Numbered from the stretch's first letter, positions 12,118 through 55,003 are shown. The stretch: DNA of 64,000 bases from Candidatus Bathyarchaeia archaeon (GCA_049516875.1 JBEKSS010000001.1:288001-352000); one strand, 5' to 3'. Notes: generated by a model not told the origin, from the sequence alone. A program made the numbers and translations.

Positions 12118-12135
12118 TTCGCCTCAGCGCGCGCG
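12118..12135 (+). repeat. GC-palindrome junction motif (left edge of island)
   Basis: TTCGCCTCAGCGCGCGCG; 16/17 identical to the copy at 15092. Confidence 0.8.
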
Positions 12136-12404
12136 ATGACAGATAGGGTCCTACATAGAAATAGTATTGAAGAAAGAAGGCCAATTTCTAGGCGATGGAG
12201 TGCAAGCCTTCCGCTGTGTTAACTTATCACATTGAACTCCACAGAGAAAAGAAAGCGTACACTGCCAAATCGCTAAGGATAGCAATCCTAAAATTGCCCC
12301 ATCCTCTTTAATGTATAAAATTGGCTTTAAGGAGAAGGAAAAATCTAAGATGTCCTTATCCTAACCCGGAATCTACAGAGGTCTCAAGACGGAGTTTGAA
12401 CCTA

Positions 12405-13598
12405 ATGAGTGTGCGCCTAGGCGTGACCGACCGTGCCGCCGTCGCGTCCCTAATCTTGGAAAGAATAGTCTATGCAGTGAACTGGTATAACCTCGCCGCG
12501 GTGTTCTCCTTCGCGGCATCCGAACTGAATCAGAACGTTTCTGGTCTGGGATTCGTCACCGCAACGTTCTACCTCGGTATTGGAATTTTTCAGGTGCCAG
12601 GCGGAATCCTCGTAGCGAAGATAGGTCCACGACTGACCGCGATATACGGTACAACCATTGCTTCCCTAGCTGTGCTGCTGACTGGCTTCGCAAGCAATCT
12701 GGTTGAGATAGCGGTATTGCGATTTCTTGTCGGGTTGGGCATGGCCTTCGTGTTTGCTCCAGGTGTTATCCTGATTACTAGGTTTCTGCAAAAGGGTTCG
12801 GAGGGATTAGGCGTCGGTCTCTACAATTCAGCCTTCTATCTTGGGAGTGCCATCGGGCTGTCGGGATGGTCCGTACTTGCGGGCGCGGTCGGATGGAGGA
12901 ATAGTTTGGTCACTAGCGGAGCACTTGGCTTATTAACGTCAGTCTTGCTATTGGTTTCAATTCCGAAGGACAGTCGGCGCTCCGGCTTCAGAGTGGATCT
13001 TCCTCATGTGAAGGTCGTTCTTTTTAACAAATGGCTGATCGCAATATCCGTAGCAATGCTGGGCCTTGGGGTAGGTAATACCGTTGTTGGCAACTTCATG
13101 GCTTATTACGTTGAAAACGCGATCCACGTGGGTGTTGGAGCAGCTGGAACAATCGCATCACTAGCCTCACTCTCTGCGCTCGTAGCGGCTCCATTCATGG
13201 GCAGGTTATTTGACAGGTCTGGCAATGCGAAGCAGCTGCTCTTCGCATCAGGTATCCTGATGGCATTCGGGGTAGGAATAGCATTCTTCGGTACGATATA
13301 TTCGGCAATCTTGTCAGGGATCCTCGTTGGCTTAGCGGCCGGAGCCGGGTTCACTTTCGGATTCTCTGCTGCGAGGGCGGCAAACAATATCGATCCGGAA
13401 TACGAAACGCTGGCTGTGAGCTGGGTGAACAGTATCTCTTTGTTTGGTGATTCTGTCCCTCCGTTGCTCTTTTCATTCTTGGTGATACAGTACGGATACC
13501 CGCCTGCGTGGCTGTGCTTAACAGTGCTTACCTTCGTGCTGATGATTCCGGTACTCTTCGCGAAGGTTTCAAAGCGTAAACAGGTTGGCGATTACTGA
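12405..13598 (+). CDS. MFS transporter
   Basis: About 12 hydrophobic segments; motif A-like PGGILVAKIGPR and GRLFDRSG. Confidence 0.9.
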   Translation: MSVRLGVTDRAAVASLILERIVYAVNWYNLAAVFSFAASELNQNVSGLGFVTATFYLGIGIFQVPGGILVAKIGPRLTAIYGTTIASLAVLLTGFASNLVEIAVLRFLVGLGMAFVFAPGVILITRFLQKGSEGLGVGLYNSAFYLGSAIGLSGWSVLAGAVGWRNSLVTSGALGLLTSVLLLVSIPKDSRRSGFRVDLPHVKVVLFNKWLIAISVAMLGLGVGNTVVGNFMAYYVENAIHVGVGAAGTIASLASLSALVAAPFMGRLFDRSGNAKQLLFASGILMAFGVGIAFFGTIYSAILSGILVGLAAGAGFTFGFSAARAANNIDPEYETLAVSWVNSISLFGDSVPPLLFSFLVIQYGYPPAWLCLTVLTFVLMIPVLFAKVSKRKQVGDY

Positions 13599-13634
13599 AG
13601 AAAGAATGGTTTGTATTTGGTTGATATTTTTTGC

Positions 13635-13671
13635 AGCGCGCGCAACAACTTTTCACGGGTTAGCGCACGCT
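13635..13671. repeat. Paired GC motifs forming a hairpin
   Basis: AGCGCGCGC-AAC...GTT-A-GCGCACGCT. Confidence 0.7.
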
Positions 13672-13846
13672 CTCAGTAAGGGCTATCTGTTGTCGCACTA
13701 CGTCTAGTCTGTAGTGATTAGCGGATCAGAAATGTATTTGACTCCAGAAACGCAAAGGCGAAAATGAATGGAGAAGCTACATTGAAACTTGTGATTAAAG
13801 TAGCTGTTACCACTAGTGCGACAGCGCCTTATGCATCCCTGAGAAG

Positions 13847-13937
13847 AAGCGCGCGATTATTATGAATCTATGGCTAGACTGGACAAGATGACAATTCGCC
13901 GAAGAGCTTCTGTGGCGTATGAATTAATTAGCGCGCG
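13847..13937. repeat. Two GC motifs (AAGCGCGCG at 13847, TTAGCGCGCG at 13928)
   Basis: Read directly from the sequence; the second copy lies just upstream of TATA-like CTTAAATA at 13943. Confidence 0.7.
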
Positions 13938-13973
13938 TCAACCTTAAATACTTAATGTTCAGATGTGTAGGCT

Positions 13974-15035: not shown

Positions 15036-15091
15036 AACCCATAGTTCCGCTATTTCTTAGAAAATGTAAAGGGTTTGGCTTTAGCCGCCAA

Positions 15092-15109
15092 TTCGCCTTA
15101 GCGCGCGCT
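15092..15109 (+). repeat. GC-palindrome junction motif
   Basis: TTCGCCTTAGCGCGCGCT. Confidence 0.8.
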
Positions 15110-16734: not shown

Positions 16735-16746
16735 ATGCGCGCGCAT
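16735..16746. repeat. Perfect palindrome ATGCGCGCGCAT (junction motif)
   Basis: Read directly; lies between the opp operon and the NicX-like gene. Confidence 0.75.
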
Positions 16747-17795: not shown

Positions 17796-17801
17796 GTTGT
17801 G

Positions 17802-23981: not shown

Positions 23982-23993
23982 ATGCGCGCGCAG
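23982..23993. repeat. GC junction motif ATGCGCGCGCAG
   Basis: Marks the 3' truncation point of the acdB pseudogene. Confidence 0.75.
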
Positions 23994-24828: not shown

Positions 24829-24842
24829 AGGCGCGCGCGCAG
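24829..24842. repeat. GC junction motif, (GC)5
   Basis: AGGCGCGCGCGCAG, about 30 bp past the ADH stop. Confidence 0.75.
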
Positions 24843-27430: not shown

Positions 27431-27449
27431 CAGCCTTAGCGCGCGCGCT
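27421..27449. repeat. Paired GC motifs at the livH / ltaE-like fragment junction
   Basis: AGCGTGCGCA-CA-GCCTTAGCGCGCGCGCT. Confidence 0.8.
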
Positions 27450-29400: not shown

Positions 29401-29477
29401 CGCGCGCTTTTCCTTTCATTGCAACAACCGGCGCGTTCGTATATAAAACCTATGGTGATCCGTGCCGCGCGCGCTGA
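29401..29477. repeat. Two GC motifs bracketing a promoter
   Basis: CGCGCGC at 29401 and CCGCGCGCGCTGA at 29465; TTTTATATA on the minus strand at about 29440-29448. Confidence 0.7.
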
Positions 29478-32457: not shown

Positions 32458-32645
32458 TAGCGCGCATGCGTGTTCCTAAAATGGTCAAAAATCGTCATAA
32501 TTCCATTTTGCACGTTTCTGCCGCGTTCGAGGAAAACAAGTACCTATGAAGATCAAGGACAGATATTGAGCCCAAAACCCTGCCTAAACCATGAAACCCG
32601 AATAAAAACCATTTTAGGCCAATTTCGGAACAAGCATGCGCGCTA
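32458..32645. mobile_element. 188-bp MITE-like element with about 38-bp imperfect TIRs starting TAGCGCGCATGC
   Basis: Left end TAGCGCGCATGCGTGTTCCTAAAATGGTCAAAAATCG; right end (reverse complement) TAGCGCGCATGCTTGTTCCGAAATTGGCCTAAAATGG. No coding capacity. Confidence 0.75.
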
Positions 32646-34158: not shown

Positions 34159-34884
34159 TTGGTAATCAATTTGCTAAAGATCTTATATATAAACCCGGTC
34201 GGCACGAGTGCCTTCGACACGCATATGCTGGACACGATAAATGAAGTCAAGAGAACTGATGCAAAACCCAAGGTTGTTTCTCTGCGCAAGGGTCCAGTCC
34301 ACTTAGAATACCACTACTACGAGCATTTGAATCTCGGTGAAACTCTAGGATGGGTGAGGTGGGCGGAGAAGGAAGGTTACGATGCGGTCGTCATTGGCTG
34401 TTTCTACGACCCGGGATTGAGGGAAGCCAGAGAACTCGTTTCAATTCCTGTGATTTTCCCGGCAGAGGCTACAATGCATGTGGCCGCGACTCTTGGGCAC
34501 AAGTTTTCCATAATTGTGAGCAGGCGGAAATCCATTCCCAGGATGGAGAGCAACGTGTACATCTATGGACTTGAGAGGAAGCTTGCCTCGTTCAGGTCGG
34601 TAGAGTTCACTGTTCCAAGGATGGGCTCCGAACCTGAGAAACTGGAAAAGGCAATATTGAAAGAGGCCAAGAAGGCAATTGAAGAGGACGGCGCGGAAGT
34701 CATAGTTCTAGGGTGCACGCTGCTGTCTGAATTCATGAAGGAGCTGACGAAAAAGTTGAAGGTGCCGGTTCTGGACGCTGTTGTGACTTCGTGGAAGTTC
34801 GCTGAAATGATGGCTGATTTGCACCGCAAGGTTGGACTGGCACACTCAAGACTCTACGGGTACGAACCTCCACCAGACGTGTAG
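34159..34884 (+). CDS. Asp/Glu/hydantoin racemase family protein
   Basis: INP, DAVVIGCFYDPGL.EARE, IVLGCT (two catalytic Cys). Confidence 0.9.
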   Translation: MVINLLKILYINPVGTSAFDTHMLDTINEVKRTDAKPKVVSLRKGPVHLEYHYYEHLNLGETLGWVRWAEKEGYDAVVIGCFYDPGLREARELVSIPVIFPAEATMHVAATLGHKFSIIVSRRKSIPRMESNVYIYGLERKLASFRSVEFTVPRMGSEPEKLEKAILKEAKKAIEEDGAEVIVLGCTLLSEFMKELTKKLKVPVLDAVVTSWKFAEMMADLHRKVGLAHSRLYGYEPPPDV

Positions 34885-34899
34885 CGCGCGCTAAGGCGC
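34882..34899 (-). repeat. GC junction motif, perfect TAGCGCGCGCTA plus AGGC
   Basis: Overlaps the racemase TAG stop; reads GCGCCTTAGCGCGCGCTA on the minus strand. Confidence 0.8.
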
Positions 34900-35045
34900 A
34901 AATATGTTTCTTGCATCACCTGATGCTCAAACTGTTTTTCGGGGTACTTCACATACTACGTGATCCGCCCAAAACACTGTGAGATCAAAGAAAGACTTTT
35001 AGGGGCTTCTTGAGATGCTAGTTATCTGTTCTGAGATGATTCCAA

Positions 35046-36467: not shown

Positions 36468-37450
36468 CGAAGCGCGTCCTTGTTGACCAAGTTGACAGGT
36501 GTTTTGCCATTGAGTGCTCTGACAACGTCTTCGGCCAGGGTGACTATCATTTTGATTCTAGAGTCTTTTGTATGACCTGCAACATGTGGTGTCACAACCA
36601 AATTCTGCAGTTTGAGGATAGGGTCAGTTGCTCTAATCGGCTCTTCTTCAAAGACATCCAAGGCTGCGCCGGCTATTCTTCTGCCTTCTAATGCTGCATA
36701 TAAAGCTCTTTGATCCACTACTCCACCACGAGATGTGTTAATGAAGTATGCGGTTTTCTTCATCGCTTTGAATTCTTCTTCACCGAACATGCGCTCTGTC
36801 TCTTTTGCAAGAGCAACATGCACCGTTATGAAATCTGCTTCCTTTAGCAGAGTTTGAAGATCAGTGTACTCAATTCCAAGCTCCTTTTCTGCATCAGCCT
36901 TTCTTCTTCGACTCTGGTACACGATGCGCATGTTGAGGCCTTTTGCCTTCCGAGCAACAGCCATGCCTATCGTTCCTAAGCCCACTATACCAAGTGTCTT
37001 CCCAGCCAAGTCTATGTTTTTGGGAAGAAGCTTGTCTCTTATGCCCCAGTTTCCTTTCCTGACTTCTCTGTCGAATTCCAAAAGGTTCTTTGCCATCGCA
37101 AGGATCAAGCAGAGAACGTGTTCTGCCACTGAATCGGTGTTCATAACGGGCAGATTGACGACCATTATCTTCTTCCCAGTTGCCGCCACAACGTCTATGT
37201 TATCCACGCCTACCCCAGTTCTTGCTATCACTTTCAGCTTGTCGGCGCTCTCGATGATTCTTCCTGTGATCTTTGCCATGCGCACAACTATGGCGTCTGT
37301 GTCTTTTGCCTCTTTGATGAGATTGTCTTCAGATGTACCTGATGCTACATTGATTGTGCCCATTTTTCTTAGGATGTCAAGACCAGCATTGTCCACTAGT
37401 TCGATCAGGGGCTCAGTTAGTAATATCTTCATTTTTCGTTCTCCCAACAT
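36464..37450 (-). CDS. D-isomer-specific 2-hydroxyacid dehydrogenase (SerA/GyaR-like, no ACT domain)
   Basis: GVGVDNID, SVAEH, GLGTIG, INTSRG, LDVF..EP, TPH.AG. Confidence 0.92.
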   Translation of the reverse strand: MLGERKMKILLTEPLIELVDNAGLDILRKMGTINVASGTSEDNLIKEAKDTDAIVVRMAKITGRIIESADKLKVIARTGVGVDNIDVVAATGKKIMVVNLPVMNTDSVAEHVLCLILAMAKNLLEFDREVRKGNWGIRDKLLPKNIDLAGKTLGIVGLGTIGMAVARKAKGLNMRIVYQSRRRKADAEKELGIEYTDLQTLLKEADFITVHVALAKETERMFGEEEFKAMKKTAYFINTSRGGVVDQRALYAALEGRRIAGAALDVFEEEPIRATDPILKLQNLVVTPHVAGHTKDSRIKMIVTLAEDVVRALNGKTPVNLVNKDALR

Positions 37451-37478
37451 TAAAAAGAAGAGAGTAGATTTGTGAAGG

Positions 37479-38678
37479 TTACTTCCCGCGTAGTTGGTTG
37501 ACGATAGATTTGAATTCTTCGTCGGAAACTAGTCCCTTTTTGCTTTCTCCTAAAGCTTTCACTTTGCCTAGTATTGGTTCAATCTGTTCTTCAGGCACGG
37601 TTATTCCGAGATTCTTCAGTTTCCATTCAATGGAGTGTCTTCCGCTCTTCTTTCCCAGGACTATTTCCCTTTTGCCGCCAACGAGTTCAGGAACAAAGCT
37701 TTCAACAGCTGGTGGATAGCTTATCAATTGCATTACAGTGACGCCAGATTCTCTCTTGAACACGTTCTCGCCCACGACGGGCTTAAACGGTGGCATTCTA
37801 ACTCCTGATAATCGTTCGACAAGCTTCGAAGTCTGAACCAGCTTATCATACTTCAATCCAACGTCAATTCCGTACAGAAGATATAGTGACAGCGCTAGTT
37901 CGCTGAGGTCTGTGTTACCAGCTTTCTCACCTAGACCATTTATTGTCACGTGCGCCCATTCAGCGCCTGCTTTTATAGCTGCAAGTTCACACGCTGTGCT
38001 AAGCCCAAAATCGTTGTGGCAGTGAATATGAATCGGAACCTTGAACCATTCTTTGAATTTCTTGGTCAAGTAGTACATTGCCTCTGGAAGGGCTACTCCA
38101 AGCGTATCCACAACTATGAGCTCATCAGCTTTTCCTTCGTTCACCGCCGCGGTATTGATTGTCTTTAGAAAATCCAGATCAGCTCTTGTCATATCGACAG
38201 AAAAGAATGCTGTGTGAAGACCATGGTCTTTAGCGTACTTTAAGGTCTCTACAGCGCGCGTCAAGGCTTTTTCTCTGTCCATGCCGTAAGCCTTGAATTT
38301 CAGCTCACTGGTCGCGATTTCACATACTACAGCATCGACATCTGCCTCTAGACAGGCATCGACGTCTGTTTTGATGCATCTACAGAAACCCCAGACTTCA
38401 GCGCTCAATCCTAGATTCGCTATGGCTTTAACAGCAGCCTTGTCTTCTGGAGAGACAACAGGCATCCCTGCCTCGATCCTCTGTACACCGAGTCCGTCCA
38501 ATGCCTTCGCTATTTTCACTTTTTCTTCCTTTTTGAAAACGACTCCAGGGGTTTGTTCTCCGTCTCTCAAAGTCACATCATAAAAACCCACTTTCTCGGG
38601 CAAATTCATTCCGCGTCTAACTTCATCAATGGAGTTAAATGGGCTCACCCACCACTTTTCTTCCAAATGTATCACCAT
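37479..38678 (-). CDS. DRE-TIM Claisen synthase (homocitrate/isopropylmalate/citramalate synthase family), no regulatory domain
   Basis: DVTLRDGEQTPG, HCHNDFG, NGLGEKAGN, LGKKSG. Confidence 0.88.
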   Translation of the reverse strand: MVIHLEEKWWVSPFNSIDEVRRGMNLPEKVGFYDVTLRDGEQTPGVVFKKEEKVKIAKALDGLGVQRIEAGMPVVSPEDKAAVKAIANLGLSAEVWGFCRCIKTDVDACLEADVDAVVCEIATSELKFKAYGMDREKALTRAVETLKYAKDHGLHTAFFSVDMTRADLDFLKTINTAAVNEGKADELIVVDTLGVALPEAMYYLTKKFKEWFKVPIHIHCHNDFGLSTACELAAIKAGAEWAHVTINGLGEKAGNTDLSELALSLYLLYGIDVGLKYDKLVQTSKLVERLSGVRMPPFKPVVGENVFKRESGVTVMQLISYPPAVESFVPELVGGKREIVLGKKSGRHSIEWKLKNLGITVPEEQIEPILGKVKALGESKKGLVSDEEFKSIVNQLRGK

Positions 38679-38821
38679 TATTTCAAAAACCCTTTGAAAA
38701 CTGGGGTTAATAAGCTTTGATCAGCGAGTTACAAGATTGGATAAGTCTCTGAAGGTGGATTGCGTGCTTGCTCTGAAAAGAATGGGGTTTGCGATGAAAA
38801 CTTGCAAAAAGTCGGATGTTC

Positions 38822-40954
38822 CTATGATAAGTTTTCTGGGTTAATTGTCTGAGTTGTAGGAAGTCTTTGACCAAAGGAGAGTGAACTCCAAGTTTGGTCC
38901 ACTTCTTGCTGGATCTCTTGGATTTCTTGGTCTGATAAGCTATCGAATCTCCCTTGGGCCTTTAGATATTCACGCACTGGTATTCTTTTTTCTGGTTTCA
39001 GGCTGAGCTTCATTTTGCCTTCTTCGACTTCATAGAGAATCCACGTACCGCTCTGAACAGCAAGCCTAGCCACTCTCACTGTTTCCGATGTTGCGAACCT
39101 CCAGCCGGTCGGGCACGGGGCATGTATGTGCAAGTACGCAAGACCCTTGTCTTCCGCAACTATTTTCGCAGCCTTGCTAACTTTTCTGTTGAGATCCGGA
39201 ATGTAAGCTATTGACGCTGTTGCCACATATGGGATTCTGTGCATGGCCATAAGGGCGGCCATGTCTTTTCTGAACGTCTTCCTTTTCCTTCTTGCTCCAT
39301 ATGGAGTAGTCGTCGTCCAAGCGCCAAATGGAGTGCTTCCACTCTTTTGAATCCCCGTGTTCATGTAAGCCTCGTTGTCGTAGCAGATGTAGATTATCGA
39401 CTCGCCTCGCTCAGCCGCAGCTGAAAGAGCCTGCAAGCCAATGTCCACTGTTCCCCCATCACCAGCGAGGCCGACTACATTTACGTGTGATTTGCCACGG
39501 ATCTTCAGCCCCGCTCTCAGACCTGTAGCCACTGCTGCTGTGCCTGCGAAGACGACTTCAGCAAAAGGCAGCTTTACCAATGGTTTAAGAGCCAAGGCAC
39601 TTTGCATCGTGACACCTGCACAGCCTGGAATGAATGTGAACACTGTATTCTTGCCTAAGGTCTGGAATACGTGGCGAGCGGTCAGCAACATGCCACAACC
39701 TGCACACGCTCGAACTCCAGGGAGAACTATACGGTCCGCATACTTCTCAAGTGGTGCTGACTTGGTAACGGGTATTTGAACCTCGTCGAGCCATTCTACA
39801 GATTCTCCTGTTCCCTTCTTCACACTTTCAAGCGTTTTATTGGCCATGAATTTGAAGTGCTCAATCGTTATCTCTCGGCCGGCTAGTCCTGCGATGAAGT
39901 TTGTTAAACAAGGTTTGTTGTCAAGATTGTACAAGGCTGACTTGAGTTCTGTGAAGACTGCTCCACCGCGTCCGCCGATACCGTGAGTCACGTCACGATC
40001 AACAACAACAACGGCTTTCACATCCTTACATGCTTCTCTCAGTTCTTCGTCTGGAAAGGGTCTATATGATCTGAGCCTAACCAAACCCGCTTGGAACCCT
40101 TCTTTTCGCAGCTCATCTACGGCAACTCTGGCTGTACCGGTCATAGACCCCATTGTCATTAGCAAAAGTTCTGCATCGTTACATCTGTACTTATCTATCA
40201 AACCGTATTCTCTCCCGAATATTTTCCCGTATTCGCTGCCGACTTCTTTCATCACGTTCTTGGCATTGTCCATGCAGTCATCTGTCTGATGCTCAAATGA
40301 AATGACCCAAGGTCGAGGTGGAACGATAGCGGCCATTCTGTTGTCAGGGTCAAGTATGAAGTGTTCAGGGGCATAAGAAGGCAGGAAATTGTCAACGACT
40401 TCTTGATCTGGAATTTCAACGTTCTCAGCCGTGTGAGAAACGAGGAAGCCGTCCATGCAGACCATTGCTGGCAATAGGACTCTCTTGTCCTCAGCGATCT
40501 TGTACGCCTGAATTATCGTATCCAAGACTTCTTGCGCATTTTCTGCGAACAGTTGCAACCAACCGGAAGTGCTCTCCGCCATCGTGTCAGAATAGTCGCA
40601 CGTTGTGGCCCAAGGCGTTGACAAAGTTCGGTTTGCAATGGCCATTACAATGGGCAAGTGATATCCATGAGCGTGGTAGACAAATTCATGCATGTAGGCG
40701 AGACCTTGAGAGGCTGTCGCGGTGAAGACTCTGACTCCGCTCAAAGAGGCACCAATGCAGACGCCCATAGCGCTGTGTTCCGATTCAACAGGAATATATT
40801 CGGCTTTGAGTTCTCCACGGTTGATAAAGTTCGCAAGATGTTCTACAATTGCCGTTGATGGACTGATCGGATATGCAGCTATTACTTTTGGTCTAGAGAG
40901 TTTTGCTCCATGTGCTGCAGCCAAGTTTCCAGACATTAAATCCTTTTTAGGCAT
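38822..40954 (-). CDS. porAB: 2-oxoacid:ferredoxin oxidoreductase, fused alpha+beta subunits
   Basis: N-half YPISP, ESEHSA, TASQGL; C-half CAGC, GDGGT.DIG.Q, DNEAYMNTGIQ, PCPTGW, all in one 710-aa ORF. Confidence 0.92.
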   Translation of the reverse strand: MPKKDLMSGNLAAAHGAKLSRPKVIAAYPISPSTAIVEHLANFINRGELKAEYIPVESEHSAMGVCIGASLSGVRVFTATASQGLAYMHEFVYHAHGYHLPIVMAIANRTLSTPWATTCDYSDTMAESTSGWLQLFAENAQEVLDTIIQAYKIAEDKRVLLPAMVCMDGFLVSHTAENVEIPDQEVVDNFLPSYAPEHFILDPDNRMAAIVPPRPWVISFEHQTDDCMDNAKNVMKEVGSEYGKIFGREYGLIDKYRCNDAELLLMTMGSMTGTARVAVDELRKEGFQAGLVRLRSYRPFPDEELREACKDVKAVVVVDRDVTHGIGGRGGAVFTELKSALYNLDNKPCLTNFIAGLAGREITIEHFKFMANKTLESVKKGTGESVEWLDEVQIPVTKSAPLEKYADRIVLPGVRACAGCGMLLTARHVFQTLGKNTVFTFIPGCAGVTMQSALALKPLVKLPFAEVVFAGTAAVATGLRAGLKIRGKSHVNVVGLAGDGGTVDIGLQALSAAAERGESIIYICYDNEAYMNTGIQKSGSTPFGAWTTTTPYGARRKRKTFRKDMAALMAMHRIPYVATASIAYIPDLNRKVSKAAKIVAEDKGLAYLHIHAPCPTGWRFATSETVRVARLAVQSGTWILYEVEEGKMKLSLKPEKRIPVREYLKAQGRFDSLSDQEIQEIQQEVDQTWSSLSFGQRLPTTQTINPENLS

Positions 40955-40969
40955 AAGCTAACCTCTTGT

Positions 40970-41224
40970 TTACTCTTCTTCCAAGACCATTTCGATGGCC
41001 TCAGTCGGACATTCTTTCGCACATACTCCACAGCCCTTACAGAATACATAGTCAATTTCGACGCCATCTTTTGTCCTGAAGATTACTCCATCCGGACAAA
41101 ACATTACACAGAGACCACACTTCTTGCAAGCCTCGTTCTTCACGACTGGCTTGAACGTTCTCCAACTGCCGGTTTCTGCGCTCTCTGTTTCGGTTCCAAT
41201 AGGAACAAGTGGAAGCTTCTTCAT
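40970..41224 (-). CDS. porD: OFOR delta subunit (2x[4Fe-4S])
   Basis: TGSWRTFKPV, CKKCGLC..CP, DY.FCKGCG.CA.ECP. Confidence 0.93.
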   Translation of the reverse strand: MKKLPLVPIGTETESAETGSWRTFKPVVKNEACKKCGLCVMFCPDGVIFRTKDGVEIDYVFCKGCGVCAKECPTEAIEMVLEEE

Positions 41225-41785
41225 CTAATTCACCTTCAATTCCAAAGCGGTAGTCTTTTCGTAAGCAATCTCAGCTGCCTTGACGTTCTTCTCAGCGGCA
41301 TCCTTAGAGAATCGGTTTGTTATCGCTTTGCGGACTGCTTTAATTCCGACCCAACCAGTAGCAACCGAAAAAGCTCCTAGCATTGCCATGTTCGTGATTG
41401 GGTTGCCAATTGTCTTCAAAGCAATGCCCGTAGCATCGACTGCAGCTATCTTGGACGGCTTACCTTGAATTGTTATTTCGGACGGCTTCATCACCGAATT
41501 GAGAACTACTATGCCGCCCTCCACTAGACCTTCCACAACATTAACCGTCCTTACAAGCTTGGGGTCGAGAACGACAACACAGCTTGGATGGTGGATCTCA
41601 GTCCTGACGCGTATTGGCACATCATCGATTCTTGTGAATGCAACGACTGGAGCCCCGCGCCTTTCTGGTCCAAAGTAAGGAAAGGACTGTGCATATTTTC
41701 CTTCATAGAATGCGGCTAGGGCAAGAATCTCCCCTGCGGTCGCGGCTCCTTGGCCTCCTCTTCCATGAATTCTGATCTCCTTCAT
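41225..41785 (-). CDS. porG: OFOR gamma subunit
   Basis: [27 protein letters not shown]. Confidence 0.93.
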
Positions 41786-43014
41786 CTTCTCATCTCAAGG
41801 AGTTTCTCATCGTATGGCGCTGTGGAAAGAACCTCATTTCCCCTTTCGGTTATCATGATTGTGTCCTCCAATCTCACACCTCCAACGCCGTGGACCGCGA
41901 CAGTAGGCTCCATTGAGAATATCATCCCCGGCTCTAGCTTGAACTTCACGAACTTCTGGTCACCGGTTAATACACGTTCCCCGATGAACGGGGCTTCTAA
42001 GCCAGCCACGCCTATACTGTGACCAAGCACACCGAAGTAAGCTTCTTTTTCGAACCCATGCTCCTTCATGACGTCTCTCGCGGCTTTGTTGACGTCCGTG
42101 TTGAGCGCTCCTGGCTTCATTACTTTGATGATGGTTTGTATTGAGTCGTATACGGTTCTGTAGATTTCTTTTTGTTTTTCAGTTGGATTTCCATGAATGA
42201 CGGTACGCGTCTGGTCTGAAAAGTATCCATTGAAGCACCCTCCAAGATCCAAGAACACTAATTCTCCTCTTCTTATCGGCTTGTCGGACGCAAACCTGTA
42301 GAGCGGCATCGTGTGATTCCCAGAGGCAATGATCAAGTTGCATTGAGGAACTTCCATTCCAAAGGAGTAGAGAATTCGCATTGCTTCGCCGAGCAGTTCA
42401 CATTCTCTCTTTCCAGATTGAATTAGACTTATGGTGCCTTCCAGGGCAAAGGATGCGATAGCGGAAGATACCCGCATCAGTTCTCTCTCCTCTGCTGTCT
42501 TTAAAACCCTTGCTTTTACGAAAACTTCGTCTCCATCGACGAAAGTTGCGTTCGGCAATGCCTGTTGCAGTCGTTGAGTCAGTCCGAACCGTGTGGCGTC
42601 TATCCCTATTCTGCCATCAGCAGCACCCATGCTGGTCAATTCCTTCTTGAACCCGTTTACTGCTGTTTTGAAAACTTCCAAGTCCTCCAAGACTGCAAGG
42701 GGTCGGATATCTTCTTTCTTGAGCCACGGCATCGTTGCTGTAGCGCGCGCCCAGTCGCCGCTTGCCACGTATAGAATCGGATCCTGATCTCTTGAGACAA
42801 TTGCGGCGTTCCTTGTGACTGCCATTCCGGTTGTCCACCACAATGGCCTATATGACGTGGTGTATCGAATGTTTTCGGGTCGGAACGCAAGAATAGCGTC
42901 GATTTCTTGTTCTTTCATCTGTTCCTTGAGTCTTGCGAGGCGCCCTTTCCTTAGTTTTTGAAAGTCTACGCGTTCTTCCCAATCGACACCAAACTGTCCA
43001 TATACATGCGACAT
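41782..43014 (-). CDS. M24 family (Xaa-Pro peptidase/creatinase-like) hydrolase
   Basis: Creatinase N-domain, DLG...GYFSD.TRT, GHSIG, EP, GVRLED. Confidence 0.88.
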
Positions 43015-43020
43015 TTCGTC

Positions 43021-44952
43021 TCACGTTTTCGCATTTTTTGTGTAAGACTTGGGTAATACTCCGTGTTTTTCCAAGTCGTCTGCAACATCCTTAAGATCCA
43101 GTTCTTCCAGTTTCTCTCGAGAGGGGATGCCTTTTTTGACGTCCCATCCTCTTGCCTTGTAGTAAGCCCTCTTCATGACGTCCAGTCGAACCACCTGACC
43201 TTTAGCGGGGCCATCGGAAACGGGTTCTTTCAGGAAATACTCAGGTATTGTATCATCTTTACTTGTCACGCCAAGCCTCATGTTGTAGCATTTCATCAGG
43301 TGATAGATTCTCTCGCCGCCTCTCTGCAGTTCCTGTTCTGACATGCCCCAACCAGTTGCGGCAGACATCATTCCCGCAATCATTTTTGCGCTGACGCTTT
43401 GAAACAGGAACAAACACTCGAGTATACATAATCCAGTGGACGCCAATACTTGTATGAAATCCTCGTGCCACTTTACCATCGGTCCTTTCGCAGGATCGTC
43501 CGAATATGGGAAAACTATGTTTTCGCTCCCGAAGAATTTCTTGGCCGTCTCTCGATCTCCCACTACCTCGAATACAGGATATCCCTTGAGATGATCAGCT
43601 CCTCTGGGGTTGACGGCATATGCCAGAGCCCAGCTCTTACCGCCTCTGAGATCTTTGTATGTCATTCCGAGACCTTTTATGTGCCCTGGTCTGGGAAACT
43701 TCAGGTTCATCGCCTCACAGGCACCTTTGACCCCTTTTGCAAGAATCTTGCCAAAACCTTCGACATGGGCGATCTTGTCCATGATTTGGGTCATTGCTTC
43801 GACATTGCCCCATGTTAATTCTATTCCGCCTGTTTGTTCTTTTGTTATGATTCCTTTTTCGTACCATTCCATCGACATGCCGATTACGTCTCCAAGCTCA
43901 TGGATGTCGATTGCTAGTTTGTTCGACAAATCTTGAAGGTAACATATGGCTGCTAGGTCGTTGTTGCCAACATTTGTCCCGAAGGCTTCTGCCGCTGTAA
44001 GCTCAGGCTTGCCTCCCATCGTTCCTGCGAACTTGCCTTCTTCTATGGAATGGAAGTGTGTGCAATGTATCGGACATGCGAAGCAGGCCATACTTCTGAC
44101 TTTGTACTTCTTTTCAAGAGTTTCTGAGGTTATGTCTTCAAGATTTTCCAGATAATGCTCGGTTCCATTCTTTACACGTGCAAGTCCCATATCGTTGTAC
44201 GAAGCTATTTGGTCCAGAGTTCCATAAGTTGCGAAACGCTTGTATGAGTGGTGACCCATTATAGACAAGACGGATTCGTTCACGAAGTTTTCGAACTCGT
44301 CTACTCTTGCAATTTGAACTGCTCTCGTTCCCCTAACCGCGATTGCTTTCAAGTTCTTTGATCCCATAACCGCTCCTAGACCGGTTCTTGCAGCAGCTCT
44401 GTATCTTTGGACAATTACGCTGGCCATCAGAACCTTGTTTTCTCCAGCGGGTCCTGTGATTGCGGTTCTAATCTCTTCATCTCCAAGTTCATCTTTGATT
44501 ATTTGGTCAGTTTCCCACGTATCTTTTCCCCACAGATGCTCACCGTTTTTAATCTCGACATTGTCATCGTCAATCCAAACGTATACGGGCTTCTTTGCCT
44601 TTCCTTCTACTACTATTTGATCATAACCAGCGAATTTCACTGTAGGACCAAAATCTCCACCAGAATTTGCATCTCCGAAGATTCCGGTCAAAGGCGACCT
44701 AGCTGTGAAGGTGACCCTTGAGCAACACGGCGCCAGTGTTCCAGAGAGTGCACCGATCCCGACCATAAGGAGATTGTCCGGGCTAAAGGGGTCTACATTC
44801 GGTCCAACATGATCATACAAGACTCTGGCGTTGAAACCTGACCCGCCAATGTACTTTCTTGCAAAATCCATGTTCAAAGGTTCTTTTACGATCTTGTCGT
44901 TTGAAAGATTGATTCTTAGAATAGTTCCTGCATAACCGTACAGAGGCATCAC
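43021..44952 (-). CDS. aor: Tungsten aldehyde:ferredoxin oxidoreductase family protein
   Basis: GYAG.ILRINLS, SPLTG, GPAGE, AAR.GLGAVMGSKNLKAI, CFACPIHC, RGADH, YY.ARGWD. Confidence 0.93.
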   Translation of the reverse strand: MMPLYGYAGTILRINLSNDKIVKEPLNMDFARKYIGGSGFNARVLYDHVGPNVDPFSPDNLLMVGIGALSGTLAPCCSRVTFTARSPLTGIFGDANSGGDFGPTVKFAGYDQIVVEGKAKKPVYVWIDDDNVEIKNGEHLWGKDTWETDQIIKDELGDEEIRTAITGPAGENKVLMASVIVQRYRAAARTGLGAVMGSKNLKAIAVRGTRAVQIARVDEFENFVNESVLSIMGHHSYKRFATYGTLDQIASYNDMGLARVKNGTEHYLENLEDITSETLEKKYKVRSMACFACPIHCTHFHSIEEGKFAGTMGGKPELTAAEAFGTNVGNNDLAAICYLQDLSNKLAIDIHELGDVIGMSMEWYEKGIITKEQTGGIELTWGNVEAMTQIMDKIAHVEGFGKILAKGVKGACEAMNLKFPRPGHIKGLGMTYKDLRGGKSWALAYAVNPRGADHLKGYPVFEVVGDRETAKKFFGSENIVFPYSDDPAKGPMVKWHEDFIQVLASTGLCILECLFLFQSVSAKMIAGMMSAATGWGMSEQELQRGGERIYHLMKCYNMRLGVTSKDDTIPEYFLKEPVSDGPAKGQVVRLDVMKRAYYKARGWDVKKGIPSREKLEELDLKDVADDLEKHGVLPKSYTKNAKT

Positions 44953-45512
44953 TCCTTTTTCGCGTCAGACAGAATCCGGTCGCGGCCACTGTAGTAGATC
45001 TTCTGAAGTATCGCTTCCTTATCCTTCACCGCATGCGCATCTTTTATTGCGGCTCTTCTCATTTTTTTCAGGTGCTGTTTGTCCGTGCGTACATATCTGA
45101 TTGCTTCAGTTGGACACCATTGGGCGCATTGAGGGTCTCCTCCGCAAAGGTCACACTTGTCAATTCTGCCTTCAGGGTTCATCCACACGAGCCCCCAAGG
45201 ACATGCAACAATACAAGAACGACATCCAACACACTTCGCAGAATCAACCAGAACGGCATCAGTGGAGCTGTCTCTGTATATTGCACCAGTTGGACATGCG
45301 TACATGCAAAAAGCCTCAGTACATTGCTTGCACACTGCAGGGATAAACAATCCTTGAGATTCCAGCCGAACAACATGAAGCAAGGCTCTAGAAGGGTTTG
45401 ATTCTCTCCGATGATGAAGCGAGCAGCGTAGTTCACATATCCTGCAACCAGTACAAACATCAGGGTCTACAATCAAGAATTTTTGGGAATTCTCCCTCAT
45501 ATGACCATGCAC
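44949..45512 (-). CDS. 4Fe-4S dicluster electron-transfer subunit (AorA/CooF-like)
   Basis: Four Cys clusters: CTGCRICE.C, CKQC..C..CP, CVGC..C..CP, CDLC..C..CP. Confidence 0.9.
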   Translation of the reverse strand: MHGHMRENSQKFLIVDPDVCTGCRICELRCSLHHRRESNPSRALLHVVRLESQGLFIPAVCKQCTEAFCMYACPTGAIYRDSSTDAVLVDSAKCVGCRSCIVACPWGLVWMNPEGRIDKCDLCGGDPQCAQWCPTEAIRYVRTDKQHLKKMRRAAIKDAHAVKDKEAILQKIYYSGRDRILSDAKKE

Positions 45513-45604
45513 CTAAGACGCATGCTTTTAGGGTATTTCCGTGACTTATCTTTCTTTCGACAAAAAGCAAGTCTTTTTAACGAGACTCTTCAATACTTCG
45601 CGAA

Positions 45605-46930
45605 GTGAGCTTGTTGCCAACTTCACATTTTGACCTAATAGTAATCGGCGGCGGAGTGGCAGGAATTCAAGCATCTCTTGAGGCAAAAAAGCTACAGCCA
45701 AGAAAATCAGTCGCACTAGTCACTGATGAAATAATCACGTATTCGAGACCCTCTCTTACTGCCGTGATCTCTGGCGCAGTGAACGATGTTGACAGAATAG
45801 GAATTTTCTCTCCTGAAACCTTGAAGAGCTCAGGTATTCAGCTTCTTTCAGGACACGAGATCTCCGAAATTGAACACCCTGCTCACACAGTCTACATGAA
45901 GAAGATAGGACAAAAACAATCAGGTAGTGCTTCTCCCTTTAATTATGAAAAACTGGTAATTGCAACTGGTGCGATACCACTGGTACCTAGAACTGAAGGA
46001 GGGGGGCTTACTGGAGTCTTCACTGTCCGAAAGTTCCAAGAAGCCCTTGCTGCTTCAAAGTTCATATCAAGTGGGATGACAGCTCACGTGGTAGGCGCAG
46101 GTTTCGTCGGACTCGACACTGCAGAAGCCTTAGCACGCAGAAGACTGAGCGTGACGCTCATAGTTCGTTCAAGAATCCTGAGAGGCATCTTGGAACAAGA
46201 TCTTTCTCAGGCATTAGTTGACCGTGCACAGATGCACGGCGTCAAAATATTGAACGGAGTTACGCTAGAAAGAATCGAAGGAAACCGAAAGGTAGAACGA
46301 GTGGTCATAGACGAAAAGGCACTCAAATCAGACGTCGTTATATTCGCAACTGGAGTTGAACCTGATACAAAACTAGCTCAATCCATGGGTTTGGTCACTG
46401 CTCGAAATGGCGCCATCAGAACCGACAAGAGCATGCAGACCAACCTAAATGGTGTTTACGCAACTGGTGATTGTTCAGAAAGCATCGACTTCGTCAGTGG
46501 CAAGAGTGTATACCGCCCACTGGGCAGTATTGCAGCACTAACCGCAAAAATTGCAGGAGCCAACGCTGTGGGCGTTGAGAAAATATACGAAGGGATCATA
46601 AGAAGGCAGTACAACAGAATATTCGACACAGAGATAATAAGCATTGGCTTAAGCACGGAAGAAGCGAAGAATCACAACATAAAAGCTAAAGCATTCAAAG
46701 TGAGGATAAAAAAACCGGAACTCTTGCTATTTCCTCAACTGGTGTCAAAGAATTTGATGAGAGTAATTGTGAACGAGGATACAGACGCTGTGATCGGATG
46801 GCAAGCGATCGGAATCAGACAAACTTCCCTGTTCTCACACTACTTCCATGACTGCATTTTCAATAGAAGAAAGCTCGAGGACGTTAATGCCTCAGGACAA
46901 AACATTGAGCTCGTCCTTGAACAGAAATAG
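45605..46930 (+). CDS. FAD-dependent pyridine nucleotide oxidoreductase (Nox-like, no redox Cys)
   Basis: GGGVAG, YSRP.L, IATG, GAGFVG, ATGD. Confidence 0.88.
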   Translation: MSLLPTSHFDLIVIGGGVAGIQASLEAKKLQPRKSVALVTDEIITYSRPSLTAVISGAVNDVDRIGIFSPETLKSSGIQLLSGHEISEIEHPAHTVYMKKIGQKQSGSASPFNYEKLVIATGAIPLVPRTEGGGLTGVFTVRKFQEALAASKFISSGMTAHVVGAGFVGLDTAEALARRRLSVTLIVRSRILRGILEQDLSQALVDRAQMHGVKILNGVTLERIEGNRKVERVVIDEKALKSDVVIFATGVEPDTKLAQSMGLVTARNGAIRTDKSMQTNLNGVYATGDCSESIDFVSGKSVYRPLGSIAALTAKIAGANAVGVEKIYEGIIRRQYNRIFDTEIISIGLSTEEAKNHNIKAKAFKVRIKKPELLLFPQLVSKNLMRVIVNEDTDAVIGWQAIGIRQTSLFSHYFHDCIFNRRKLEDVNASGQNIELVLEQK

Positions 46931-46931
46931 T

Positions 46932-48113
46932 CTATCTCAGCTTTTCCAGACTGCCCTCTATTCTCTGAAGCGCAATTTCTATCTGTTTGATGGAAGCGGC
47001 ATAGGTTAGTCTAATATGGCCTTCGCCAAGATTGCCGTACGCGATTCCGGGATAGACAGCGACTTTCGCCTTCTCAATCAGGAATTGAGTCATCTTGAGC
47101 GAATCCAATCCAAATGCTTTAACGTTTGGAAAAACGAAAAATGCTCCTTTAGGCAATTGACATGAGAGACCATCGATTGAATTTATCCTCCCAACGATGA
47201 AACGTCGGCGCTTGTCGAATTCTTTGACCATCTCACTTACACAGCCTTGGGGTCCCCTAAGTGCTGCAACAGCAGCCTTTTGAACAACAGCGTTTGTACA
47301 CAAAACGATGGAACTCTGAATCTGCAAGAGGTCGTCAACGAGACTCTTCTTGGCAGCTAGATAGCCGATTCTCCAGCCAGTCATCGCGTAAGTTTTCGAA
47401 AAACTTCCAATCAGAATTGTGCGCTCTTTCATGTCGGGAACAGACAAAATGCTTGAATGCCTTACACCATCATAGACGATTTTTTCATATGCTTCATCAG
47501 TCAATGCTATCAAGTTTTTTTTCTTGGTTATATCAGCTATTGCGACGATGTCTTTTCGATCAATCACCATCCCAGTGGGATTGCTCGGCGAGTTAAGGAT
47601 AATCATTTTGGATGCCTTGGTAATTCTTTTTTCAATCTCGGATGGTTCAAGTCGAAAACCTTCCTCTTCTTTAAGAGGTATCGGAACTGGAATCCCGCCT
47701 GCAAATCGAATACAAACCGGATACCCAACATAGCAGGGATCGGGTATAAGCACCTCGTCTCCTGGATTAATCACACCCATGATTGCAAGAAAAATACCCT
47801 GTATTGCTCCAGGCGTTGCAATTACCTCAGAAGATCTTAGGTCTACATCCTGTTCCCTTTGGATCTTTTCTGCTACGGCCTCTCTGAACTCTGGAATCCC
47901 GCCAGTTGGCGTGTAGAAAGTATTCCCTTCATCCAAAGCTCTTTTCGCTGCCTCTCTTATATGATCAGGCGTCAAAAAATCTGGTTCCCCCGACGTGAGT
48001 TTGATGACATCTTTTGTTTTCAGCGCCAGCTCGCGCATTTTCGAAGCTTCCAAAGAGCTCAAGGAAAGAATTGCTTTAAGTCTCTCAGACGCCCAGTTGT
48101 GCTCGGCATTCAT
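46932..48113 (-). CDS. Class I PLP aminotransferase (aspartate/aromatic)
   Basis: GEPDF.TP, NSPSNPTG, DEAY, SFSKTYAMTGWRIG. Confidence 0.93.
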   Translation of the reverse strand: MNAEHNWASERLKAILSLSSLEASKMRELALKTKDVIKLTSGEPDFLTPDHIREAAKRALDEGNTFYTPTGGIPEFREAVAEKIQREQDVDLRSSEVIATPGAIQGIFLAIMGVINPGDEVLIPDPCYVGYPVCIRFAGGIPVPIPLKEEEGFRLEPSEIEKRITKASKMIILNSPSNPTGMVIDRKDIVAIADITKKKNLIALTDEAYEKIVYDGVRHSSILSVPDMKERTILIGSFSKTYAMTGWRIGYLAAKKSLVDDLLQIQSSIVLCTNAVVQKAAVAALRGPQGCVSEMVKEFDKRRRFIVGRINSIDGLSCQLPKGAFFVFPNVKAFGLDSLKMTQFLIEKAKVAVYPGIAYGNLGEGHIRLTYAASIKQIEIALQRIEGSLEKLR

Positions 48114-53044: not shown

Positions 53045-53166
53045 TTGAGAAGACCCGAATGGTTTTGAATAGCATGAGACGTGATGACCGCATGTCCTAT
53101 GAATGCAAGTGAACAAGTTTGGCTGGCTTTAAATAGTTGAATTTGCTCAGTTAATTATGGGGAACA

Positions 53167-53373
53167 GTGTTGGAAATACAACATTGGTGCTTCAACGAGT
53201 TCCCAGATCAATGCGTAGGATGCCCGGAATACAGCGAATCACGTCCAGATTCAACTATGCAACTCATTTTGCAAACAGCGAGTTGTGGCATACCATATCC
53301 GCAACGATACAGGAGATTAGTTACCAGAGAATGCAAACTGTATCACAAACGCAAAGTCGAATATTCAGAATGA
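53167..53373 (+). CDS. Small Cys-rich hypothetical protein
   Basis: 68 aa with five Cys including CVGC; TTTAAATA about 35 bp upstream. Confidence 0.4.
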   Translation: MLEIQHWCFNEFPDQCVGCPEYSESRPDSTMQLILQTASCGIPYPQRYRRLVTRECKLYHKRKVEYSE

Positions 53374-53428
53374 AGAAAAATCCTAGCCTGCGGTTGCTAT
53401 CTTCCGTTTTCTGAATAGGTTGTCCTCG

Positions 53429-53443
53429 TAGCGCGCGCTAGGC
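53429..53443 (-). repeat. GC junction motif TAGCGCGCGCTA-GGC
   Basis: Perfect 12-bp palindrome identical to the copy at 34882. Confidence 0.8.
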
Positions 53444-53857
53444 CCCATTCTGATGTCTGATTACTTGTGTTTTCTGGACAGGTTAACCTAGTTAACGGCG
53501 CGGCAAGTACACGATGAAAACAGGCTTAAACGCAGATTATGAAATTCCCGTTATTTCCCGACTTTGTCCGAGTGCTTTTTCTTCTTTTGCTTATTCTTTT
53601 TTTCTAATGAAGGCATACACTAATCCCCACAAAGCAATACTTACAATTAATGATATTACCCTATGTAGGTCTTAAGACTTTTCACAGTTAAGCCTATAGG
53701 AGTTAGAAAAAGGGGATTGTGCTGGAGACATCTCCACTTTAAATGTAAGTATCTTACTCCGGCCACTTCTTTGCATACTCCGCCATCTTTTTGTATTGCG
53801 GGCGCCCACTTGGACAGGCATAAGTCAAACCCTAAGAGAACGGACAAGGGTGTTTCG

Positions 53858-54970
53858 ATGAAGTATGAAATCAGATGCTCAGTGTGCAACAAGCCCTCTT
53901 CCAGTTTACTTGCCTTCAAATGTCCCTCATGTGGGCAGCCATTGGACATTCAACTTGACTTCAATTTTGAACCCGAAAAGATTTTCAGGAATAACTACAG
54001 CGTTTGGAGGTACGCGCAATTTTTCCCGTATGCGCAGGAGAACAAAATCATCAGTCTGGGTGAAGGCTGGACTCCTCTGGTCAGGTTGTCAGACAACACG
54101 TACGTGAAGCTTGAGAGCCAGAATCCTACTGGTTCTTTCAAGGACAGAGGCTCAACGGTCCTGATCTCCGCTTTGCACAGGCTGATAGAAGAGGCGGGGG
54201 GTTACATTGCTGAGGATTCTTCGGGCAACGCTGGAGCTTCGATGGCCGCCTACGCTGCGCGCGCGGGCTTGAAGGCCAGAATTTACGTTCCAGAGACTGT
54301 TGCGGGTCCAAAGTTCAATCAAATCCAGTTTTACGGGGCGCAAGTCACGAGGGTTTCGGGCAGCCGTAGCAGAGTTGCTGAGGAAGCGCAGAGACCTCAG
54401 AAGGGGAAAGTCTACATCGGACACATTCTTCACCCCTTGTTTAGAGACGGAATCAGGAGCCTAGCTTACGAGATTGCTGAACAGTTTGACTGGCAACTCC
54501 CTGAGCGCATTTACTTGCCTGTATCTGCCGGAACTCTTCTTCTTGGCGTACTAAGCGGGTTCAGACACCTAGCTGAATCTGGCATCATCAAGTCCACGCC
54601 GAAGATTGTGGCTTGCCAGACACGCCAAGTTTCACCCCTTTATCATCGATTCAAGGGTTTGGGCTATACTCCACCTGAAAGGGTTACATCTGCTGCCGAC
54701 GCGCTTGTCAGCGTGAATCCGCCACTGCTTGAACTCATGGTCAAAGGATTGAGAGATGCAAGGGGAGACGCCGTCATGGTTGAGGAAAATGAGATTCTGG
54801 AGGCTTTCAAGGAACTGGCCAGAAACGGCTTTTTTGTCGAACCCAGCTCAGCTGTTGCGTATGCGGCTTACAAGAAACAAATCAGGACCAAACGGACTTC
54901 AAAAGATGCCATTGCGACAGTGGTATTAACGGGTATGGGGTTGAAGACCACATTTCAACCACTCGCATGA
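53858..54970 (+). CDS. thrC: Threonine synthase-like PLP enzyme with N-terminal Zn ribbon
   Basis: CSVC..CPSC, LGEG.TPL, NPTGSFKDRG, SSGNAG, EPSSA, LTG.GLK. Confidence 0.85.
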   Translation: MKYEIRCSVCNKPSSSLLAFKCPSCGQPLDIQLDFNFEPEKIFRNNYSVWRYAQFFPYAQENKIISLGEGWTPLVRLSDNTYVKLESQNPTGSFKDRGSTVLISALHRLIEEAGGYIAEDSSGNAGASMAAYAARAGLKARIYVPETVAGPKFNQIQFYGAQVTRVSGSRSRVAEEAQRPQKGKVYIGHILHPLFRDGIRSLAYEIAEQFDWQLPERIYLPVSAGTLLLGVLSGFRHLAESGIIKSTPKIVACQTRQVSPLYHRFKGLGYTPPERVTSAADALVSVNPPLLELMVKGLRDARGDAVMVEENEILEAFKELARNGFFVEPSSAVAYAAYKKQIRTKRTSKDAIATVVLTGMGLKTTFQPLA

Positions 54971-54991
54971 GTTTACTTTTCAAAATCTGGC

Positions 54992-55003
54992 GGGCGCGCT
55001 TAA
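54992..55003. repeat. Short GC motif GGGCGCGCTTAA (right edge of island)
   Basis: Between convergent thrC and dppF. Confidence 0.5.

Follow-up and report, generated by a model that had tools for sequence, protein, structure and literature searches.

The 64-kb stretch of DNA analyzed here, hereafter the window, corresponds to C1:288001-352000 in the assembly of a Candidatus Bathyarchaeia archaeon (G000; 2.43 Mb, 20 contigs, 47% GC), and it carries repeated copies of the palindromic octamer GCGCGCGC. Pfam searches revealed that the window genes encode transporters, oxidoreductases, POR/KOR/AOR-type enzymes and an ADP-forming CoA ligase. The initial annotation, made from the sequence of the window alone, had proposed a 43-kb catabolic island partitioned by the octamer into modules that would be shuffled through it. 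Its gene labels broadly match the Pfam results, except that three open reading frames (ORFs) labeled 'ampS' had no match in Pfam (E <= 1e-5) or NCBIfam (E <= 1e-3). All ten of the positions at which it had placed GCGCGCGC were found to carry the octamer, and its view that the motif is non-random was borne out. The window contains 12 distinct loci (14 overlapping matches), including two that had been overlooked (42743 and 54257), both of which lie within Pfam-supported genes. In dinucleotide-preserving shuffles of the window (n=100), GCGCGCGC occurred 0.65 times on average and at most four times, with none of the 100 reaching 14, and the hexamer GCGCGC was found 43 times in the window against 11.4 expected. 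We found GCGCGCGC to be a genome-wide intergenic palindrome that is not special to the window. The features of the window are as follows, where G003 denotes a sister species of G000.

12127..12134: solo copy of GCGCGCGC, in the divergent spacer of the ETF and MFS genes
13636..13643: solo copy of GCGCGCGC, 38 nt past the MFS stop codon; alignable with G003, which has TGTTAGC there
13663..13672: degenerate copy TAGCGCACGC, at the exact left edge of an 11.3-kb stretch (~13663-24860) missing from G003
13974-15035, 22653-23693 and 28365-29378: the ORFs labeled 'ampS' by the initial annotation, label unconfirmed
15101..15108: solo copy of GCGCGCGC, in a convergent spacer
16737..16744: solo copy of GCGCGCGC, 80 nt past the stop codon of the opp ATPase gene
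23984..23991: solo copy of GCGCGCGC, in a 136-aa ORF with no Pfam match, probably non-coding
24831..24840: (GC)5 copy, 30 nt past the ADH stop codon; the 11.3-kb indel relative to G003 has its right edge ~20-30 nt away
27439..27448: (GC)5 copy; homology with G003 restarts at the very next base
29467..29474: solo copy of GCGCGCGC, in a divergent spacer
32460..32643: 184-bp miniature inverted-repeat transposable element (MITE) with 46-nt inverted ends and no ORF; its ends, with flanking TA, read TA, GCGCGCATGCGTGTTCC ... GGAACAAGCATGCGCGC, TA
34884..34891: TAGCGCGCGCTA copy, its first G completing the TAG stop codon of the racemase gene
34924..48085: 13-kb block syntenic with G003 (85% identity), with zero intergenic octamers and one coding octamer (42743)
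42743..42750: GCGCGCGC, coding, within the M24 peptidase gene
53431..53438: solo copy of TAGCGCGCGCTA, between the ABC-2 permease and ThrC-type genes
54257..54264: GCGCGCGC, coding, within the PALP (ThrC-type) gene

Eleven further positions had been listed as shorter or degenerate copies. Seven of these are exact GCGCGC hexamers (13849, 13931, 29402, 31090, 32460, 32638 and 54994) and three are variants with one or two mismatches (13663, 27422 and 48204); the remaining position, 22580, was rejected as unconvincing, since the sequence there is merely GGCGCGGC. It had also been stated that intergenic DNA at 1-12 kb and 55-64 kb contains no sites, which holds for the octamer but has little weight. 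Based on our crude ORF calling, these two flanks contain just 461 and 744 bp of spacer, and the absence says little because the genome rate of 0.7/kb predicts fewer than one site for them.

An assembly artefact does not account for the GCGCGCGC sites. Two public runs, which are possibly the source samples, have Logan contigs that cover 15001-32487 with no differences and break only at the multi-copy element at 32460-32645, and another public metagenome contig, from a sample that is not necessarily independent, matches 19775-41073 at 99.995%. A search for alternative junctions had been suggested as a check on shuffling; none was found at seven octamer sites in the public contigs of four runs, bearing in mind that rare variants are lost from contigs. 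Joints were listed at 32488-32608, inside the multi-copy MITE and not at solo sites. Two contig pieces among those listed for the low-depth run X6 stop at 24829 and 34879, within 5 nt of the octamers at 24831 and 34884, which could reflect either a coverage drop at GC palindromes or length polymorphism. A scan of metagenome contigs for close relatives returned the same strain and a G003-like strain only.

Across G000, we identified 388 loci of (GC)4 or longer, of which 91 fall within ORFs and 297 in the remaining 422 kb, and the octamer density was 0.70/kb outside called ORFs versus 0.045/kb inside. ORFs were called crudely (>=90 aa, greedy by length), with 82.6% of G000 counted as coding, and this procedure over-calls: four of the ten non-genic window sites sit in shadow or unsupported ORFs, and of the 82 sites that fall in non-conserved ORFs, half belong to ORFs shorter than 150 aa. 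The 705 conserved genes contained only nine loci in 676 kb (0.013/kb), ~50-fold below the density between ORFs. In the G000 spacers, 333 octamers were found against 1.47 expected from the dinucleotide background. A survey (PMC4060949) describes alternating GC runs as generally suppressed across prokaryotes, and the octamer excess is therefore unusual. As evident from these counts, the idea of an island did not hold up, because the loci are spread over the whole genome, the motif also occurs in other genera and families, and the density in the window (0.19/kb) is close to the genome-wide average (0.16/kb). Elsewhere on C1, 16-kb bins contain up to eight loci, and contig C14 reaches 0.48/kb. The window owes its many copies to the variable DNA of its middle 40 kb and does not form a special island.

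The motif can be written as (T)A-GCGCGCGC-T(A), and its conservation is limited to about 12 bp. The sole flank signals are an A at -1 (0.57) and a T at -2 (0.42), and the two flanks are independent, as A at -1 together with T at +1 was found in 80 sites versus 80.4 expected. No extended inverted repeats above the null were found around solo sites. Runs of (GC)3, (GC)4 and (GC)5 accounted for 342, 258 and 37 spacer loci, followed by about three. When the runs were considered between TA dinucleotides, TA(GC)nTA showed a sharp length optimum, with 5 occurrences versus 6.7 expected for n=2, 6 versus 1.05 for n=3, 18 versus 0.16 for n=4 and 2 versus 0.03 for n=5. Neither (AT)4, (AC)4 and (AG)4 nor other GC palindromes were enriched. 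The density was alike in divergent, convergent and tandem spacers (0.65-0.80/kb), low across the 40 nt upstream of start codons (0.24-0.44/kb) and raised approximately 2-fold 10-60 nt downstream of stop codons (1.0-1.6/kb). Additionally, in G107, a genome of another family, a TAGCGCGCGCTA copy lies 20 nt downstream of a tRNA-Val gene (C1:371379-374390, locus L150, positions 1406-1512), which fits this mild preference for positions just downstream of genes. The number of sites per spacer and their spacing were near random, except for the 150-200 bp bin, into which the MITEs fall. Paired sites as the bounds of small elements were thus rejected, since neighbor spacing outside that bin matches the random model.

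To describe how the motif is placed relative to conserved gene order, we compared G000 with contig C1 of G003 alone (1.44 Mb; nucleotide identity to relatives is ~80%) and obtained 809 orthologues by reciprocal best hits (median amino acid identity, 81%). The G003 contig likewise carries the motif, at 129 spacer loci. Spacers whose gene adjacency is conserved in G003 contained three sites in 28.4 kb (0.11/kb), and the other spacer classes had densities of 0.49, 0.62, 0.78 and 0.77/kb. This contrast persisted in each length class: conserved spacers of 50-400 bp contained no site in 20.3 kb, and those of 200-800 bp contained three in 17 kb. Only 4 of 293 sites in G000 and 3 of 129 in G003 lie in DNA that can be aligned between the two genomes. 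Among 394 conserved-adjacency spacers, four had a site in either genome, and none of these four had one in both. The proposal that the motif accompanies shuffled or variable DNA was therefore well founded.

The suggested comparison of synteny breakpoints with the motif gave a divided answer. Of 462 ends of G003 homology blocks, 21 had a site within 10 bp, versus 10.4 +/- 2.0 when sites were randomised within their own spacers, that is, about twice the null, which ignores the preference of the motif for positions 10-60 nt past stop codons; 93-95% of the ends had no site within 10-35 bp. Two local cases were also observed. The 260-bp stretch at 27187-27446 of the window corresponds to a 5.1-kb insert in G003 that contains three octamers and one hexamer within 600 bp (C1:628725-629319; locus L013, also L096). 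The intergenic stretch at G000 C14:26577-26857 is 85-92% identical to G003 C1:1355735-1356075 and has a conserved octamer; its G003 copy adjoins fragments resembling the insertion-sequence ends of the type found in G002, another genome of the genus, and the stretch could represent either a gene for a small RNA or a mobile remnant common to both species.

To see how far the octamer borders whole modules, we considered 28 indels of at least 1.5 kb between conserved flanking genes (18 extra in G000 and 10 in G003). The octamer was present in the left border spacer of two indels, in the right border spacer of three and in both of none, i.e., in 5 of 56 border spacers. The densities in border spacers were 0.32 and 0.09/kb compared with 0.7/kb in non-conserved spacers generally, and border spacers were poorer in sites than the spacers within inserts. 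In the window, the 11.3-kb stretch absent from G003 begins at the degenerate copy at 13663 and stops ~20-30 nt from the (GC)5 copy at 24831; this motif-bordered indel is therefore an exception and not the rule. A Pfam scan found no integrase or recombinase among the 52 window ORFs. The 'catabolic island' is ordinary variable gene content without dedicated shuffling machinery. Within this content, the 433-aa ORF at 29775-31076 had no Pfam match and showed a weak full-length match to the NCBIfam sulfoquinovose isomerase (52.9 bits versus a cut-off of 700).

The few sites that can be aligned among relatives gave some indication of how copies arise. A five-genome alignment revealed TA-GCGCGCGC-AA in G003 where the four other genomes have TA-GCT[A/C]CT-AA, which represents a gain in G003. 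The remaining alignable cases comprised one clean insertion of 11-12 nt (C1:121879), two single-base variants and one site shared by G000 and G003. On these few data, sites appear to emerge via concerted small events and not by stepwise drift. Single-mismatch variants at the four central positions numbered 234 versus ~24 expected, with transitions approximately twice as frequent per type as transversions, which fits perfect copies decaying neutrally. Judging from these comparisons, copies seem to arise perfect and then to decay neutrally.

A connection with transposons, as anticipated by the initial annotation, was found, in that a resident insertion sequence and MITEs terminate in the hexamer GCGCGC. 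A pattern search of G000 identified 19 paired MITE copies and 47 inverted-repeat-like termini starting with GCGCGC. Public contigs break at the MITE ends with many different flanks. The MITEs are flanked by TA on both sides in ~12 of 19 copies, and in the four insertion-sequence copies TA is on the left (observed for three of them) and G on the right; the TA flanking the MITEs may belong to the repeat itself. On contig C7, we found a 1.1-kb insertion sequence with GCGCGC ends that encodes a 333-aa DDE_Tnp_1 transposase (Pfam, 54 bits), which agrees with the earlier expectation of an enzyme encoded outside the window. This transposase scored below all curated NCBIfam cut-offs, the best being IS1182 (83.7 versus 270) and IS5 (66 versus 140), and the insertion sequence matches TGGC-type MITEs. 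Copies 84-87% identical to the C7 element were present in G001, G003 and G004 with unrelated flanks, and the homology halts at the GCGCGC ends. A relative in G002 (43-45% identical) has the exact MITE inverted repeat, the ends GCGCGCATGC[G/T]TGTTCCTAAATT and an open frame of 329 aa that resembles a transposase. The hexamer forms an integral part of these elements, as relatives in families f7 and f24 keep GCGCGC although their hosts lack the 12-mer TAGCGCGCGCTA. We thus rejected a model in which the GCGCGC of the element ends is copied from a GCGCGCGC target, since these relatives keep GCGCGC ends without solo sites in the host and every terminus carries exactly six bases. In 10-kb bins with element termini, there were 1.09 solo sites per kb of spacer versus 0.64 elsewhere. 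Neither an IS630/Tc1-type transposase (PF13358) nor, by self-BLAST, assembled multi-copy insertion sequences were found in G000. The repeated G000 segments are instead paralogues of the TATA-binding protein (TBP) and a 224-aa ORF, located at C1:367311-369206 and at the ends of contigs C8, C12, C13 and C16; these also flank the insertion-sequence copies of relatives, and the segments look like a hypervariable multi-gene region that breaks assemblies.

The 12-mer TAGCGCGCGCTA was present in all five genomes of the genus (23, 3, 9, 10 and 16 copies) and, of 26 further genomes from the nearest relatives, in two; a reversed control pattern gave zero throughout. Among 301 genomes of the class, 41 carried the 12-mer and 15 carried at least nine copies, and these 15 motif-rich genomes belong to families f1, f26, f27, f31 and f37. 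GCGCGCGC occurred in hundreds of copies in five genomes of other families. In G107, the 12-mers are isolated and have unrelated flanks. Such a patchy spread over lineages is typical of mobile DNA. A scar of non-homologous end joining was considered as a source of the copies and rejected, as the Ku domain (PF02735) is found in G000 but in only 3 of the 15 motif-rich genomes versus 73 of 301 overall. The Ku-domain protein of G000 is encoded at C9:92481-93017 (139 bits), and Ku occurred chiefly in f24 and f35 within the class and in 1 of 14 control genomes (Bacillus subtilis).

The reading that we favor is that GCGCGCGC is a highly iterated octamer that accumulates almost only in fast-turnover non-coding DNA, in several patchy lineages, and that new copies would be made by a sequence-specific mobile-DNA process. 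We put the probability of the descriptive part alone at about 0.9 and that of the whole statement, including the mobile-DNA origin, at about 0.4. The sole concrete lead to such a process would be the IS5/IS1182-like insertion sequences and MITEs whose outermost hexamer is GCGCGC, and the solo copies might then be scars of excision or of abortive events with small losses of flank. The elements resemble IS5/IS1182-like elements and Tourist/Stowaway-type MITEs in having a 184-bp form with 46-nt terminal inverted repeats, TA flanks, a high copy number and autonomous relatives with matching ends, and the solo palindrome shares their terminal GCGCGC and the preference for TA/A flanks. The solo sites differ from them in lacking internal element sequence, any duplication beyond partial TA and coupling between the flanks, and in occurring also in genomes without this transposase family.

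A number of observations weigh against a mobile-DNA origin of the solo copies, or against purely neutral accumulation. At the level of single sites, tests of solo octamers for excision footprints revealed no flanking target-site duplication, and the octamers do not track the element family. TA borders just about one quarter of solo ends and occurs on both sides of 19 of 258 sites versus 15.5 expected under independence, and no direct repeats of 3-6 nt were found around solo sites. Three of the few sites that can be aligned show the motif in place of a stretch about as long as itself, where an insertion would have added TA plus 8 nt. At the level of elements, filled and empty pairs were not found, as the flanks were adjacent in the other genome for 0 of 19 MITEs and 0 of 7 insertion-sequence loci of relatives, a comparison limited by the divergence of these genomes (~80% identical in nucleotide sequence). 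The G003 contig has its 129 solo sites but only two termini of the MITE/insertion-sequence pattern, together with one four-copy repeat family that ends in (GC)3-4. At the level of genomes, a homologue of the transposase (E <= 1e-20) was present in 4 of the 15 motif-rich genomes versus 43 of the 286 others. In f24, the transposase is found in 29 of 71 genomes (at most eight matches each) and the 12-mer in 3 of 71 (0-1 copies), whereas in f31 the 12-mer is found in 7 of 10 genomes and the transposase in none of the 10. G107, a single contig of 2.0 Mb, has 601 GCGCGCGC with no PF01609 match and no matching terminal inverted repeat. The IS5/IS1182-like/MITE family is thus neither necessary nor sufficient for solo sites, and it is not enough to account for the solo copies. 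As regards pure neutrality, the site common to G000 and G003 speaks against it, as does another site, where the perfect octamer is present in three species and two others have an unrelated heptamer in common.

A possible but unlikely alternative is that the octamer is a host cis-element, either a short Z-DNA-prone element or the target of a dimeric DNA-binding protein specific to the lineage (of nucleoid, insulator or silencer type), that is kept outside transcription units. A palindrome whose half-sites have independent flanks would suit such a role, as would its exclusion from genes, from the 40 nt before start codons and from conserved spacers, and its mild enrichment 10-60 nt after stop codons; the identical 12-mer also recurs in distant families, and one site is conserved in three species. 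These points are set against an orthologous conservation that is nearly nil (none of the four site-bearing conserved spacers carries the site in both genomes) and against the near emptiness even of conserved spacers of 200-800 bp. Moreover, the density is equal in divergent, convergent and tandem spacers, the mismatch spectrum resembles neutral decay, no candidate protein was found, and the general suppression of alternating GC runs in prokaryotes mentioned above also argues against this explanation. The REP/BIME, Correia and RPE repeats and the mobile GC clusters of yeast mitochondria are GC-rich intergenic palindromes that occur in hundreds and mark variable spacers, and some of them serve as targets of insertion sequences. 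These units are, however, 20-150 bp long, conserved and capable of forming hairpins, whereas here at most ~12 bp are conserved and the octamer forms no stable hairpin.

We consider it doubtful, and lean clearly against the view, that GCGCGCGC is the recognition or product site of an undescribed sequence-specific DNA-processing activity, which could belong to a nuclease, to a repair enzyme or to an enzyme derived from a transposase, and which is horizontally patchy in the class and writes perfect palindromes into non-coding DNA. With such an activity, the octamers would mark or drive the turnover of accessory intergenic DNA, and the insertion-sequence and MITE ends would exploit the same activity.

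The comparison with HIP1 made by the initial annotation was apt in that GCGCGCGC is a short perfect palindrome in great excess in spacers (333 versus 1.47 expected). HIP1 (GCGATCGC) of cyanobacteria is likewise an 8-bp, GC-rich perfect palindrome that is present in hundreds of copies in some lineages only and whose function is unsettled. HIP1 is abundant within genes as well as between them, and cognate methyltransferases have been associated with it. The present octamer differs in being ~50 times denser between genes than in conserved genes (0.70 versus 0.013/kb), in avoiding synteny-conserved spacers, in the lack of PF00145 in the genus and in its archaeal host. A drive of the HIP1 kind, in which a GCGC-specific methyltransferase, restriction or short-patch repair biases mutation or repair toward the palindrome, is improbable. 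The shared copy number and patchy lineages speak for it, as do the nine loci in conserved genes, which exceed the approximately two expected by rough arithmetic from the spacer background, and the degenerate copies that often differ by CpG-type transitions, such as GCACGCGTGC. On the other side, repair should act in genes and in conserved spacers too, where the density is 50-fold and 7-fold lower, and the gains that we observed are multi-base replacements and not single steps. The C5 methyltransferase domain (PF00145) was above the cut-off in none of the five genus genomes, the best score being 19.4 bits (G002) versus a cut-off of 22 bits; N4/N6 methyltransferases and Vsr were not searched.

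Plain mutational bias, in which GC dinucleotide runs slip or expand, starting for example from the termini of MITEs or insertion sequences, is quite improbable. It would explain the presence of (GC)3, (GC)4 and (GC)5 side by side, and we observed one terminal inverted repeat with (GC)4 in place of (GC)3 (C15:17040). Runs as short as (GC)4 slip rarely, the length distribution (342, 258, 37 and about 3) is non-geometric, other dinucleotide repeats are unenriched, and slippage leaves both the lineage restriction and the replacement of unrelated bases unexplained.

The proposal that GCGCGCGC is a recombination or attachment site through which modules of 1-14 kb are inserted, deleted and shuffled is very improbable: the ~7-fold depletion in synteny-conserved spacers, the excess of homology ends near sites, the edges of the 11.3-kb indel and the 19 of 19 MITEs whose flanks are non-adjacent in G003 are in its favor, but no indel among the 28 has the octamer on both sides, border spacers are the less dense ones, over nine tenths of the homology ends have no nearby site, the window encodes no recombinase, the site has no attC-like extended structure, sites are placed close to randomly within and among spacers, and the contigs of four runs contain no alternative junction at seven sites. 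The likeness to integron attC sites and cassettes consists in a site that recurs between short gene modules within variable DNA; here, however, no integrase is encoded in the window, the motif spans 8-12 bp without an imperfect inverted repeat of 60-140 bp, the modules lie in either orientation, the indels are not bounded by sites and the sites are genome-wide. Overall, the earlier interpretation was right about a non-random motif, variable DNA, the transposon link and the HIP1 likeness, while its central elements, the island and the cassettes, were mostly unsupported.

In our literature search, we found no published description of the GCGCGCGC motif. If the finding is confirmed, it would serve as a warning for genome scans, as local clusters of a genome-wide motif can mimic a locus-specific system. 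In that case, GCGCGCGC would also be an archaeal counterpart of the highly iterated palindromes of cyanobacteria, with a different and informative distribution. It would mark young or unstable DNA in metagenome-assembled genomes, and it would offer a handle on the enzyme that makes or reads the palindrome.

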